Positions 46,230-51,463 of a DNA stretch of 56,627 nt are shown here, piece by piece (position 1 is the stretch's first letter; each line of letters begins with the position of its first letter). The DNA is from Candidatus Rokuibacteriota bacterium (GTDB taxonomy: Bacteria; Methylomirabilota; Methylomirabilia; Rokubacteriales; CSP1-6). The DNA is taken from NCBI GenBank assembly GCA_003220595.1, contig QHSZ01000022.1, positions 1 through 56,627 of the forward strand, read 5' to 3'. The position numbers were made by a program, and so were the translations under genes. Under the pieces are notes generated by a model. It was not told the origin of the DNA, made no database searches, and worked only from the letters and a program-made list of their open reading frames with translations.

Positions 46230-47588
46230 ATGGCACGGCCCGTCGTCCTGGTCGTCGATGACGATGCCGGCGTCAGGGAATCGTTCCGGCTGACGCTGGA
46301 AGACCACTACGACGTTGTCGACGTCCCAGACGGCCTGCGCGCCCTGGACGCCGTGCGCGCCTCGCAGGTGGATCTGGTGCTCCTCGACATCCGTCTCCCG
46401 GAGATGGACGGCATCGAGGTGCTCGAGCGCATCAAGGCGATCGACGAGGGCATCGAGGTCGTCCTCGTCACCGCGGTGCGGACGGTGCGGACCGCGGTCG
46501 CCGCCATGAAGCTCGGCGCCTTCGACTACCTGACGAAGCCCTTCGAGGAGGACGAGCTCCTGGCCGTCATCGCCCGGGCGCTCGAGAAGCGCGCGCTCGA
46601 GCGCGAGGTGACGTTCCTCCGCGGTGAGCTCGCCCGGGCGCGGGATTTCGACGAGATCGTCGGCCACCACCCCGCGATGCAGAAGGTCTACCACCTCGTC
46701 GCCCAGGTGGCGCGCACCACGACCACGGTGCTCATCACGGGCGAGAGCGGCACCGGCAAGGAGCTCGTCGCGCGGGCGATCCACCGTCAGGGGCCGCGCC
46801 GCGACAAGCCGTTCGTCGCCGTCAACCCCGCGGCCGTCGCCGAGTCGCTGATCGAGTCGGAGCTGTTCGGTCACGAGCGCGGCGCGTTCACCGGCGCCAA
46901 CCAGCGGAAGCTCGGGCGCTTCGAGCTGGCCCAGGGCGGGACGCTGTTCCTCGACGAGATCGCCACGCTGAAGGGCGAGCTCCAGGTCAAGCTCCTCCGC
47001 GTGCTGCAGGAGCGCGAGATCGAGCGGGTCGGCGGCACGCACCCGATCAAGATCGACGTTCGCGTCGTCGCGGCGACGAACGCCGACCTCAAGGATGCGG
47101 TGGCCCGTGGCGCCTTCCGCGAGGACCTCTACTACCGGCTCAACGTCGTGTCGATCGACGTGCCGCCGCTCGCGCAGCGGGCCGACGACATCCCGCTGCT
47201 CGTGCAGCACTTTGTCCACCGCTACAGCCGCGAGTGCAACAAACCGGTGGACGAGCTCTCGCCCGAAATCCTGACGGCCCTGCGCGAGTACGGGTGGCCC
47301 GGCAACGTCCGCGAGCTCCAGAACGTCATCGAGCGCGCGGTCGTTCTGGCCGAGGGCCCGGTGATCCAGCTGAGCGACCTGCCGCTCGACGTCCTCCTGC
47401 CGAAGCACCGTGAGAAGGTCCGGACGGCGGATCACCTCCCCTTGAAGAACGCGACGGAGGAATTCGAGCGCCAGATCGTCCTCCGGGTCCTCGAGCGGGT
47501 CGGCGGAAACCAGAGCGAGGCCGCCAGGATCCTCGGCCTCCACCGGAACACGATCAACCGGATCGTGGGACGCTCGAAGACCTCGTGA
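46230..47588 (+). CDS. Sigma-54-dependent response regulator (NtrC family: REC-AAA+-Fis HTH)
   Basis: VVLVVDDDAGVRESF...LLDIRLPEMDG (REC domain). Also [30 protein letters not shown] (GAFTGA) and a C-terminal NQSEAARILGLHRNTINR. Confidence 0.9.
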   Translation: MARPVVLVVDDDAGVRESFRLTLEDHYDVVDVPDGLRALDAVRASQVDLVLLDIRLPEMDGIEVLERIKAIDEGIEVVLVTAVRTVRTAVAAMKLGAFDYLTKPFEEDELLAVIARALEKRALEREVTFLRGELARARDFDEIVGHHPAMQKVYHLVAQVARTTTTVLITGESGTGKELVARAIHRQGPRRDKPFVAVNPAAVAESLIESELFGHERGAFTGANQRKLGRFELAQGGTLFLDEIATLKGELQVKLLRVLQEREIERVGGTHPIKIDVRVVAATNADLKDAVARGAFREDLYYRLNVVSIDVPPLAQRADDIPLLVQHFVHRYSRECNKPVDELSPEILTALREYGWPGNVRELQNVIERAVVLAEGPVIQLSDLPLDVLLPKHREKVRTADHLPLKNATEEFERQIVLRVLERVGGNQSEAARILGLHRNTINRIVGRSKTS

Positions 47589-47590
47589 GA

Positions 47591-49568: not shown

Positions 49569-51463
49569 GGCTCGCGTCGCTCCGGGCGAAGCTCCTCTGG
49601 GGCACGATCCTCGTGATCACGCTCGTGATGACGGGCGTCTTCGTCGTGGTCGACCATCGCCAGGGCGTCGCGATCGTCGACGAGTTCCAGCGGCGTGGCG
49701 AGGTGCTGGCGCGGAACCTCGCGGCGATCTCCTACGGCCCGCTGCTCCTCTACAACTACACGGCGCTCGAGCAGAACGTCACGCAGGCCGCCGCCGAGGA
49801 CGACGTGCGCTACGCGCTCGTCCTCGACGCCGACGGCAAGGTGGCCGTCCACAGCGGCCACCCCGAGCGTGTGGGGAGCGCGATGGAGGGCGCGGTGCCT
49901 GCGCGCGCCGCCGCCGCGGGCGAGCCGCTGATCCAGGAGTCTGTCACGTCGCGGGGCGAGTCCATCTATGACTTCGCTGTGCCGGTGCGGGTGGAGGGCC
50001 GCAAGTGGGGCACGATCCGTGTGGGCCTCTCCAAGCAGCGCATGGACGCCGAGATCCGGAAGACCCGCCTGGAGCTGGGCGCGCTCACCCTCGTCACCCT
50101 GTTGCTGGGCTGCGGCGCGGCCGCCGTGATGGCGCGGCGGATCGCCCGCCCCGTGCAGCAGCTCGCCGAGGGCGCCGCGGCGCTCTCGCGGGGCGAGGCC
50201 GCCCCGCGCATCGAGGCTTCGACCTCCGACGAGATCGGGCGGCTCGCGGCCGCGTTCAATCACATGGCGGTGGAGCTCGCCGAGCGGCGGCGCGCGCTCG
50301 AGGAGGCGCACCACGAGCTGCAGCGGCAGTTCGTCGAGCTGGCCGACCTCAAGAGCTACACGGACAACATCCTGGGCTCGCTCGCGAACGGGATCGTCAC
50401 CGTGGGCCTCGACGGGCGCGTCGTGACGCTCAACCCCGCCGCGGAGCTCCTCACGGGGTTCTTCAAAGGGGAGGTGTCCGGCCGGTACTGCAGCGAGATC
50501 TTCGCCCACACGCCGGCGATCTCCGACATTCTCATGGAGACCCTGGCGAGCCGCGCGCCGATCACCGGCGTCAACTTGACGCTCCGCCGGCGGAACGGCA
50601 GCGCGATGCCGGTCGAGTTCAGCACGGCGCCGCTCAAGGGCGGCGAGGGCAAGGACGTCGGCGTCATCGGCGTGTTGCGCGATCTCACGCTGGTCCGGCG
50701 GCTCGAGAGCGACCTGCGCCGCTCGGACCGGCTCGCCGCGCTCGGCACGCTCGCGGCCGGCCTCGCCCACGAGATCAAGAACCCACTGACCGCACTGGTC
50801 ACGTTCAGCCGTCACCTCGAGCGGAAGTTCGACGACGTCCGCTTCCGCGAGAGGTTCCAGAGCGTCGTGCCGCACGAGCTGGAGCGGATCAACGCGATCG
50901 TCGAGCGCCTGCTCGAGCTCGCCCGCCCGGCGCGGATGAACGTCGCCCTCGTGCGCCTGCCCGGGCTCCTCGACCGCGTGGCGGAACTCTACGCGAACCA
51001 GATCGAGGCCCAGCAGATCGAGGTCGTGCGCGAATACGGGCGCGACGTGCCCCCGATCCAGGCCGACCAGGAGGGGCTCTACCGGGTCGTCGTGAACCTC
51101 GTGGCGAACGCCCTCGACGCGATGCCCGCCGGCGGCAGCCTCACCCTGCGCGCCGGCTGGAGCGAGAGCGGCAGCCAGCCCACGCCCTGGCGCCGGCGCT
51201 CGCCGGACCGGCGCGTGCGGATCGAGGTCGAGGACACTGGCGATGGCATCCCGGCGTCCGAGAGCGACCGCATCTTCAATCCCTTCTACACGACGAAAGA
51301 GGGCGGCACGGGGATCGGTCTTGCCCTCGCGCACAAGATCGTCGAGGACCACGGTGGCACGATCAACTTCAGGAGCGGTCGGGGCCCCGGGACCGTGTTC
51401 ACCGTCGTGCTGCCCCTCATCCCGGAGCCGTCGGCCGGCGCCGGCGACGACGCCCCGCGCTGA
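49565..51463 (+). CDS. Membrane sensor histidine kinase (TM, periplasmic domain, TM, HAMP, PAS, HisKA, HATPase)
   Basis: The ATG overlaps the binding-protein stop (ATGA). Two TM segments bracket a periplasmic domain of about 160 aa. HAMP segment (RPVQQLAEGAAALSRGE), PAS, H-box AHEIKNPL, and G-boxes DTGDGI and GTGIGL. Confidence 0.9.
   Translation: MRLASLRAKLLWGTILVITLVMTGVFVVVDHRQGVAIVDEFQRRGEVLARNLAAISYGPLLLYNYTALEQNVTQAAAEDDVRYALVLDADGKVAVHSGHPERVGSAMEGAVPARAAAAGEPLIQESVTSRGESIYDFAVPVRVEGRKWGTIRVGLSKQRMDAEIRKTRLELGALTLVTLLLGCGAAAVMARRIARPVQQLAEGAAALSRGEAAPRIEASTSDEIGRLAAAFNHMAVELAERRRALEEAHHELQRQFVELADLKSYTDNILGSLANGIVTVGLDGRVVTLNPAAELLTGFFKGEVSGRYCSEIFAHTPAISDILMETLASRAPITGVNLTLRRRNGSAMPVEFSTAPLKGGEGKDVGVIGVLRDLTLVRRLESDLRRSDRLAALGTLAAGLAHEIKNPLTALVTFSRHLERKFDDVRFRERFQSVVPHELERINAIVERLLELARPARMNVALVRLPGLLDRVAELYANQIEAQQIEVVREYGRDVPPIQADQEGLYRVVVNLVANALDAMPAGGSLTLRAGWSESGSQPTPWRRRSPDRRVRIEVEDTGDGIPASESDRIFNPFYTTKEGGTGIGLALAHKIVEDHGGTINFRSGRGPGTVFTVVLPLIPEPSAGAGDDAPR

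Follow-up and report, generated by a model that had tools for sequence, protein, structure and literature searches.

The 56,627-nucleotide stretch of DNA analysed here (contig QHSZ01000022.1 of a Candidatus Rokuibacteriota bacterium; "the window" means the whole of it) was found to carry a sigma-54 signalling cassette. In this cassette a gene for an enhancer-binding response regulator is followed by a putative enhancer, a predicted -24/-12 promoter, a small open reading frame (ORF) of 43 codons, a gene for a family-5 solute-binding protein and a gene for a membrane sensor kinase. The order of the four genes was observed to be highly conserved in related genomes. Our tentative reading, to which we would give somewhat less than an even chance, is that the binding protein has the encoded peptide, whole or as a fragment, as its ligand or partner, which would close a signalling loop.

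The cassette was compared with 80 related loci from about 80 species-level genomes, which were fetched through alignment of the binding protein, and gene-order counts were restricted to loci with enough flank on the relevant side or sides. The order regulator, small ORF, binding protein, kinase is kept in 47 of the 49 loci with enough flank on both sides. The small ORF itself is present in 77 of 80 loci, the three exceptions being contigs that are cut at the binding-protein gene. Where there is room, the regulator lies upstream of the small ORF on the same strand (59 of 61 loci) and the kinase downstream of the binding protein (63 of 64); locus L015 has no regulator upstream. The median gap between the end of the binding-protein gene and the start of the kinase gene is 15 nt and is at most 5 nt in 24 of 74 loci, while in the window the ATG of the kinase overlaps the stop of the binding protein as ATGA. 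A preliminary description of the window had set out this co-oriented arrangement and the ATGA overlap, and had called for a survey of the four-gene order and of the small ORF at syntenic loci; each element was found where it had been placed, and the arrangement recurs in related genomes. The wider neighbourhood (Lon, SLT, ComM and Liv genes) is also syntenic in the related loci, so that gene order alone is weak evidence, and more weight falls on the coupling at operon level and on the promoter.

A few loci depart from the common pattern in label or content. Six loci are labelled as other taxa (Gaiellaceae, Nitrospira, Binatia, Actinomycetota, Acidoferrum and Verrucomicrobiia) and have the same layout at 62-69% identity; these labels reflect either mis-binning or transfer. 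A second SBP_bac_5 paralogue was found between the binding protein and the kinase in two loci, where it is intact in L067 (L067:6528-8213) and fragmented in L021 (L021:7530-8287). In locus L067, the regulator and the small ORF are moreover separated by a MazF/PemK toxin gene.

The small gene and its protein family

The small ORF, MAKVLAVLFIIASFLLVAPVIESGTTGSSQLFQAVGTADGGGW, begins at the ATG at 47803, with an AGGAG Shine-Dalgarno sequence 8 nt upstream, and ends at the stop codon 47932-47934, which overlaps the GTG start of the binding-protein gene as GTGGTAA. Its length of 43 codons agrees with the preliminary description, and its start is at 47803 and not at 47804. Entropy at the three codon positions was observed to be 0.68, 0.46 and 1.18 bits, so that variation falls mostly on the third position. 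At the third position, for example, the codons of the invariant proline, glycine and alanine residues show 1.3-1.5 bits and those of the invariant glutamate 0.48. Judged by this pattern of codon variation, the small ORF is a genuine gene under purifying selection at the protein level. A total of 322 relatives of the small protein were found in a word-indexed database, all unnamed or "hypothetical", and a profile search of 1.8 billion representative proteins gave only 63. No family match was found in Pfam or NCBIfam.

The consensus of the family is M-[TA]-K-x2-A-x-L-x2-ASFLLVAPVIESGTSGSTQ-x-FQA[IV]G[TN]A[DE]GGGG-x. It consists of an N-terminal Sec-type signal or signal anchor, a P-V-I-E-S-G-T junction, an F-Q-A-[IV]-G-[TN]-A-[DE]-G-G core and a variable Gly tail. 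By eye, the N-terminus has an n-h-c layout where Lys3 is followed by about 15-18 hydrophobic residues, with proline at position -5 and I-E-S/G at the predicted cleavage site. The residue at -1 was observed to be His or Tyr in divergent members and cleavage is therefore uncertain, the IES/G site being plausible in the main clade. The PVIE motif is nearly invariant, as is the hydrophobic stretch in its C-terminal half, and the Glu is kept in the divergent members as well, which suggests that the N-terminal region does more than target export. Both a cleaved peptide and a signal anchor are possible from the sequence. Candidate peptide forms are GTTGSSQLFQAVGTADGGGW, with the consensus GTSGSTQFFQAIGTADGGGGD. 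The test peptide proposed in the preliminary description ended in tryptophan, which was found not to be a family feature: the tail is a Gly run of variable length that ends in D, E, Y, F, W, M, S or G.

The small gene was also observed in tandem repeats, in a clade with the core ..GNA[CS]DG.., where two copies are present in L036, L041 and L044 and three in L040 (4875-5880). In L052 (4690-5700), there are five copies in a 216-nt repeat, with the usual palindromes and a TGGC-N7-ATGCT element in front of them and the binding-protein gene after them. Two of these copies are intact as assembled and three have 1-nt indels, which are possibly long-read errors. Neither a kinase nor a regulator was found within 6 kb in this locus. 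The array standing together with the binding-protein gene, and the overlap between small ORF and binding-protein gene, indicate that it is the peptide and the binding protein that remain paired, and selection appears to act on the dosage of the peptide.

Divergent homologues of the small protein were also found outside the cassette. The first, P0279 (41 residues; L087:1933-2058, also in L084, L085 and L088-L091), matched the profile at E 2e-10 and is 46% identical to the window peptide over 35 residues. It was found on 12 contigs, where it is part of a block of small ORFans that share one orientation, and its gene has its own ribosome-binding site and a strong hairpin after it. A match to a head-maturation-protease domain (phrog_3017, 1e-16) and one to a virion structural/major head protein (phrog_1623, 8e-66) on the L087 contig indicate phage or prophage DNA. 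No binding protein, kinase or regulator was found within 10 kb of P0279. The second, P0296 (44 residues; L081:6001-6135; E 3e-5), is 41% identical to the window peptide and lies in an ORFan-rich block in which PHROGs and Pfam gave weak helix-turn-helix (HTH) and zinc-ribbon matches only. The phage-borne peptide could act on the sensor of the host or independently. A scan of IMG/VR with the peptide patterns gave no confirmed match, and a tblastn search of GenBank phages with the phage-type peptide gave no match. The long repeat proteins P0276, P0298, P0301 and P0302 were rejected as relatives, being low-complexity or repeat artefacts.

In addition, genes for YcaO (E 1e-64 to 1e-69) and TfuA (E 1e-35) were observed directly beside the cassette in 3 of the 80 loci, and none are present in the window. 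They are located between the regulator and the peptide promoter in L017 (2991-5464) and L030 (2261-4752) and just upstream of the regulator in L001 (1620-4102). This adjacency is a lead for modification of the peptide.

Control region and RNA structures

The regulator gene ends with the TGA at 47586-47588 and is followed within 3 nt by the first of two palindromes (Table 1), as had been described. Their pattern occurs three times in the window, where 0.27 occurrences are expected, and the cassette repeats account for two of these. The palindromes lie 83-120 bp upstream of the promoter, within the roughly 80-150 bp expected of activator sites. Palindromes of the same kind were found at the equivalent place in related loci, about 100-130 nt further upstream than the -24/-12 element, with half-sites that vary by clade (TGCAC-N6/7-GTGCA or GCCCAG-N4-CTGGGC). 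We infer that the regulator binds these palindromes as a putative enhancer.

The well-spaced -24/-12 element is also seen in the sequence as first described, and the start of transcription is predicted at about 47737. In the related loci, TGG[CT]-N7-TTGC[TC] was observed 74-113 nt 5' of the ATG of the small ORF in about 68 of 77 cases, with variable bases in the spacer. The conserved -24/-12 element and the palindromes give the footprint that a functional sigma-54 promoter and its enhancer would be expected to leave, and we predict these for this region. An AT-rich tract is located between the two, and a loosely similar "gAAA..N..cTTgg/TTAG" tract was found at equal offset in many related loci. 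It is possibly a site for integration host factor (IHF) or for bending, its match to the IHF consensus being imperfect. No other pair of enhancer and -24/-12 element was found in the 56-kb window, nor a second conserved -24/-12 site in 889 kb of related loci.

Two stem-loops flank the small ORF on the transcript. The first is in the 5' untranslated region (5'-UTR), and in 61 aligned loci 85.3% of its cells were found to be paired compared with 73.1% in shuffles (0/500). Cells with a double change numbered 78 compared with 25 in shuffles (0/500), slid controls were at most 60% paired and compensatory change was observed in 8 of the 9 pairs. The second stem-loop follows the small ORF. A perfect stem of at least 8 bp within 123 nt 3' of the small ORF was found in 53% of 77 loci and in 4.7% of 1540 control coding segments. 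This post-ORF hairpin was not called in a scan for intrinsic terminators because it has no T-run. Hairpins after precursor genes are known to set the product ratio in other operons. We infer that this one may raise the peptide-to-sensor ratio, as an attenuator or a transcript-punctuation signal. A search of Rfam with positions 45000-52000 gave nothing meaningful and neither stem-loop was matched, and the two conserved RNA structures are newly described here for this cassette.

Table 1. Positions in the window of the cassette genes, of the control and RNA elements and of the neighbouring genes upstream.
Feature	Position	Strand	Basis	Description
Isochorismatase gene	43988-44689	-		upstream of the cassette
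ComM/YifB-type ATPase gene	44574 to ~46100	-		divergent from the regulator, upstream of it
Regulator gene	46230..47588	+		NtrC/AtoC-like sigma-54 enhancer-binding response regulator
First inverted repeat	47590-47609		sequence	ATGCACA-agcgtc-TGTGCAT; putative enhancer (upstream activating sequence)
Second inverted repeat	47611-47627		sequence	TGCACCAC-C-GTGGTGCA; putative enhancer (upstream activating sequence)
AT-rich tract	47668..47686			cgAATAACAATTACTTAgg; sole AT-rich patch of the intergenic region
Predicted sigma-54 -24/-12 promoter	47710..47725	+		TGGCGG-N5-TTGCT; GG/GC spaced 10 nt; consensus TGGCAC-N5-TTGCW
5'-UTR stem-loop	47750..47772	+	covariation	GAAGCTCTC-AUGGG-GAGAGCTTC, 9 bp; between the sigma-54 promoter and the small ORF
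Small ORF	47803..47934	+		43 codons
Binding-protein gene	47928..49568	+		family 5, SBP_bac_5
G+C-rich stem-loop	47961..47995	+		GACCGGGCGGGG-N11-CCCCGCCCGGTC, 12 bp; inside the first codons of the binding-protein gene, just 3' of the small ORF
Kinase gene	49565..51463	+		membrane sensor histidine kinase

Sensor proteins and possible roles of the small protein

The regulator has the Pfam domains Response_reg, Sigma54_activat, AAA_lid_14 and HTH_8 (a Fis-type HTH), and residue D53, the Walker A motif GESGTGK and the motif ERGAFTGA are present. The kinase is composed of a first transmembrane segment, a periplasmic sCache_3_2 domain, a second transmembrane segment and HAMP, PAS, HisKA (H-box AHEIKNPL) and HATPase_c domains. 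The domain sets and catalytic motifs of the two proteins are complete. AtoS and AtoC are the best-scoring named relatives of the cytoplasmic part of the kinase (345 bits against a cut-off of 646) and of the regulator (478 bits against 714), and the periplasmic domain, the partners and the target differ from those of AtoS-AtoC. None of the named regulators (AtoC, NtrC, ZraR, PrsR and others) was found to be an equivalog of the regulator, all NCBIfam scores being below cut-off. Pairwise distances of the kinase core and of the receiver domain of the regulator correlate at r=0.82, the top cross-protein value, which fits the two as a cognate pair; the preliminary description had assumed such a pair.

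The binding protein belongs to SBP_bac_5 (Pfam E 1e-89). The sole plausible start of its gene is the GTG at 47928, with GGAGG upstream, and the gene ends at 49568. A Sec signal is present in the protein and a lipobox is not. Among relatives with solved structures, the closest are DppA, HbpA and GsiB-type proteins, which are binders of dipeptides, heme and glutathione (E 1e-72 to 1e-57, the best at 1e-72 to 1e-67). The binding protein was found not to be an equivalog of DppA, GsiB or OppA, as its NCBIfam scores of 231, 208 and 192 bits are all below the respective cut-offs of 1005, 594 and 947. The invariant D445 aligns with D408 of DppA, which we take to be the residue that holds the free amino group of the ligand, and is kept in 20 of 20 relatives. 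A basic residue lies one position from R355 of DppA, where the alignment is ambiguous.

No DppC/OppC-type permease was found in the 56-kb window or in 79 of the 80 loci (within 6 kb on either side; no complete genomes were searched). The preliminary description had noted that no family-5 permease or ATPase is adjacent and that the convergent Liv-type operon has its own binding protein, and had proposed that the orphan binding protein is a co-sensor. The first observation was borne out, and the co-sensor idea is supported at the level of sequence by the nearly overlapping genes and by the missing permease in the window and in the related loci; an unlinked permease elsewhere is possible. Binding proteins that serve solely as co-sensors of kinases are a described class, which includes AioX-AioS-AioR (PMC8050422).

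We read these parts as a binding-protein-assisted two-component system, conserved across Rokubacteria/Methylomirabilota, which would activate itself through sigma-54 and have the exported peptide as its main product, and a signalling loop can be proposed for it. The regulator gene, which is divergent from comM, would use its own promoter and form a separate transcript. The kinase would sense the periplasm via its sCache domain with the DppA-like binding protein, which is translated just before it, and would phosphorylate D53 of the regulator. The regulator would then assemble on the two palindromes and, with a bend at the AT-rich tract, open the -24/-12 promoter. The order on the transcript is the conserved 5' stem-loop, the 43-residue peptide, the strong stem-loop, the binding protein and the kinase, a layout which would yield more peptide than sensor. 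Following Sec export, the peptide would either be released, as about 20 residues that are acidic and rich in Gly, Ser and Thr, or be anchored with its tail in the periplasm. The tail or a fragment would bind the binding protein, with the retained Asp clamping the free amino end, and the loaded binding protein would reset the kinase and close the loop. This ligand reading is drawn from the persistent pairing of peptide and binding protein, the retention of the Asp for the amino end and the layout favouring an excess of peptide.

Several observations weigh against a ligand role. Since pockets of the DppA type close around dipeptides, binding of a 20-mer would require that it be processed or that the pocket be open-ended. 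The Rokubacteria/Methylomirabilota phylum has been reported to be diderm (PMC5712423), and a secretin gene is present in the window. No exporter is encoded and a 2-kDa peptide would have no obvious route out of a diderm cell and back. The predicted cleavage site breaks the -1 rule in the divergent members, and the most conserved parts of the peptide are internal (FQAIGTADGG) and membrane-proximal (PVIE), the predicted new N-terminus being less conserved. Distances of the mature peptide correlate at r=0.19 with those of the binding protein compared with about 0.4 for the kinase and the regulator. In this mirror-tree comparison of the peptide with the binding protein and with the kinase and regulator domains, no specific signal was found for the peptide with the binding protein or with the sCache domain, and we regard the comparison as uninformative and not as negative proof. 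Furthermore, the phage-like homologues without a linked binding protein or kinase suggest that the peptide can be useful alone, and a closed loop without an input would make little physiological sense. A broader version of the ligand reading, in which the 43-residue product is a periplasmic or extracellular signal received through the DppA-like protein and the kinase and in which phages carry mimics that drive or jam the host circuit in an arbitrium-like way by use of the host receptor, is quite unlikely in our estimate; it would amount to peptide signalling by binding protein and kinase in a diderm phylum.

A role of the MgrB or CpxP type survives best among the alternatives and is, in our view, somewhat unlikely. 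Here the product would stay in the inner membrane (N-in, C-out) and feed back on the transmembrane segments or the sCache domain of the kinase, and the binding protein would sense an external peptide-like nutrient or a cell-wall fragment. The size and topology of the product are like those of small membrane regulators of kinases such as MgrB for PhoQ, and its gene stands behind the system's own promoter. Both the hydrophobic C-terminal half with PVIE, which is far more conserved than a disposable signal peptide needs, and the Glu at the junction, which is kept even where the -1 residue is lost, would be accounted for, as would peptide distances that track the kinase and the regulator over the binding protein. 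However, the product has no sequence similarity to MgrB and matched nothing in Pfam, and the correlation of its distances with those of the sCache domain (0.42) does not exceed that with the cytoplasmic domains (0.38-0.42). The tandem copies, the hairpin and the phage homologues point to an abundant, stand-alone product, and a stoichiometric modulator fits these less well: two to five copies with a hairpin favouring excess would be odd for it, the peptide genes of L052 stay with the binding protein and not with the kinase, and the phage copies occur without any kinase.

We consider it unlikely that the peptide is an effector, that is, the main secreted or surface product of an operon whose binding protein and kinase sense exogenous peptides, the loop then being ordinary autoregulation of a two-component operon. 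The logic would be like that of short peptides which stand directly under a quorum or stress regulator. As the first and best-translated gene of the sole visible sigma-54 target, with a hairpin after it and arrays of up to five copies, the small gene would suit such an output, and the homologue on the phage contig stands alone with its own ribosome-binding site and hairpin like a "moron" of lysogenic conversion. The mature part is, however, short, acidic and rich in Gly, Ser and Thr, unlike known antimicrobial or surfactant peptides, and no outer-membrane exporter is encoded. The tight and ancient linkage to an orphan binding protein would also be left unexplained.

It is very unlikely that the binding protein is an ordinary transport protein for Dpp/Opp-type uptake that works with an unlinked permease, in the way of MppA with Opp in E. 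coli, and that its adjacency to the kinase is synteny. The conserved wider neighbourhood, which makes gene order weak evidence, the retained peptide-binding Asp and the naming of relatives as transport proteins in the source databases are in line with this explanation. Against it, the gene is part of a sigma-54 operon, placed between a conserved small gene and the kinase with overlapping or nearly overlapping stop and start codons, a permease is missing within 6 kb in nearly all loci, the DppA score is far below its cut-off (231 against 1005 bits), and a paralogue is inserted between binding protein and kinase in two loci. Finally, thioamidation of the peptide by YcaO/TfuA before export, as a precursor of the class of peptides made on ribosomes and modified after translation (RiPP), is highly improbable: the YcaO/TfuA genes beside the cassette, their two different positions, the Gly-rich tail and the multi-copy arrays would suit it, whereas the enzymes are found in only 3 of 80 loci and not in the 56-kb window, lie on the regulator side of the sigma-54 promoter and not within the peptide operon, and can act on housekeeping (non-RiPP) proteins as well (PMC13063428), and a Sec-type N-terminus is not a usual RiPP leader.

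Surrounding genes, known systems and significance

The window has a G+C content of about 70% and the relatives of its proteins are found in metagenome-assembled genomes of Candidatus Rokubacteria/Methylomirabilota. Genes on the opposite strand flank the cassette on both sides, which makes it a physically self-contained unit. Upstream are the isochorismatase and ComM/YifB-type genes, and downstream is a complete convergent Liv-type ATP-binding cassette (ABC) operon (Peripla_BP_6, two ABC ATPases and two BPD_transp_2 permeases). A direct repeat, GTAGTCTAT-GTAGTCTAT, was observed at 56230-56290 (minus strand) upstream of the Liv-type binding-protein gene, and is probably the operator for some regulator. 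This upstream region has no -24/-12 element and the Liv operon is therefore not an obvious target of the cassette regulator. The plus-strand ORFs at 44025-45284 and 45456-46211 were rejected as wrong-frame artefacts of the high G+C content, the minus-strand isochorismatase and ComM/YifB-type genes being the real ones. An ORF of 1014 codons antisense to the regulator was likewise rejected as a wrong-frame artefact over the part that overlaps the regulator.

Two other clusters were noticed in the window. A type IV pilus cluster at 16132-34402 (minus strand) encodes PilB/PilT-type ATPases, PilC, a prepilin peptidase, PilM and a secretin, with a PilS-like kinase and a PilR-like sigma-54 regulator at 27328-30304 and a pilin at about 26716-27100. 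A -24/-12-like sequence, TGGCATGGAAGATGCC, lies upstream of the pilin at about 27191-27176, within an over-long ORF call. A heat-shock cluster at 36968-43166 encodes Hsp20, DnaK, DnaJ, a MerR/HspR-type regulator and Lon, with an SLT transglycosylase next to it.

Parts of the design are known from other systems. The AioX-AioS-AioR system for arsenite (Agrobacterium and others) shares a transporter-less binding protein, an sCache-like kinase and a sigma-54 regulator of the NtrC family that acts on a -24/-12 promoter (PMC8050422). In CBP-ChiS of Vibrio and DppA-Tap of E. coli, a family-5 binding protein controls a membrane signalling protein (PMC8050422). The binding proteins of the latter two also feed an adjacent ABC transporter, however, their ligands (chitin oligosaccharides and dipeptides) are external and neither sigma-54 nor a co-encoded peptide is involved. 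In the arsenite system, the binding protein is reportedly of the phosphonate-binding family and not of family 5, the target operon aioBA is separate, there is no gene for a small exported peptide and the sensor genes are not the main cargo of the promoter.

Feedback by a small envelope protein that is induced by a two-component system and acts on its kinase is known for PhoQ-MgrB, CpxA-CpxP and ZraS-ZraP, and ZraR is a sigma-54 regulator. The proteins of these systems have no sequence similarity to the small protein. Their genes are single-copy and are not co-transcribed with the kinase, no binding protein takes part, and ZraP and CpxP are larger soluble proteins. In Gram-positive peptide signalling, a short self-induced precursor bearing an export signal is encoded together with its sensor (ComC and AgrD with a kinase; Phr and AimP with OppA; PrgZ), and a family-5 protein captures the mature peptide. 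AimP is a phage-borne precursor of about 43 residues. Those systems are found in monoderm cells, the family-5 protein feeds an importer and an intracellular receptor and not a kinase, and there are dedicated processing or export genes. No sequence relation to the Gram-positive signalling peptides was found and the phage databases gave no match.

No description of the cassette was found in the literature, of which coverage was incomplete. As far as we found, the design of regulator, kinase and co-sensor is known, and the combination of a family-5 co-sensor with an exported mini-protein as the first cistron, the RNA elements and the phage-borne homologues has not been described.

Rokubacteria/Methylomirabilota are abundant, uncultured soil and groundwater bacteria whose signalling is almost unstudied, and this cassette is among their most conserved regulatory units. 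It illustrates how short genes overlooked in annotation can stand at the core of an operon. The mini-protein represents a new unnamed family even if its role should be that of modulator or effector. Some lineages have amplified it and phage-like elements carry copies of it, and the two new conserved RNA structures are open for study. If the mini-protein is the ligand, the cassette would be a genetically compact case in which a peptide is sensed by way of a periplasmic binding protein and a kinase, with parts small enough to be rebuilt in a model host.

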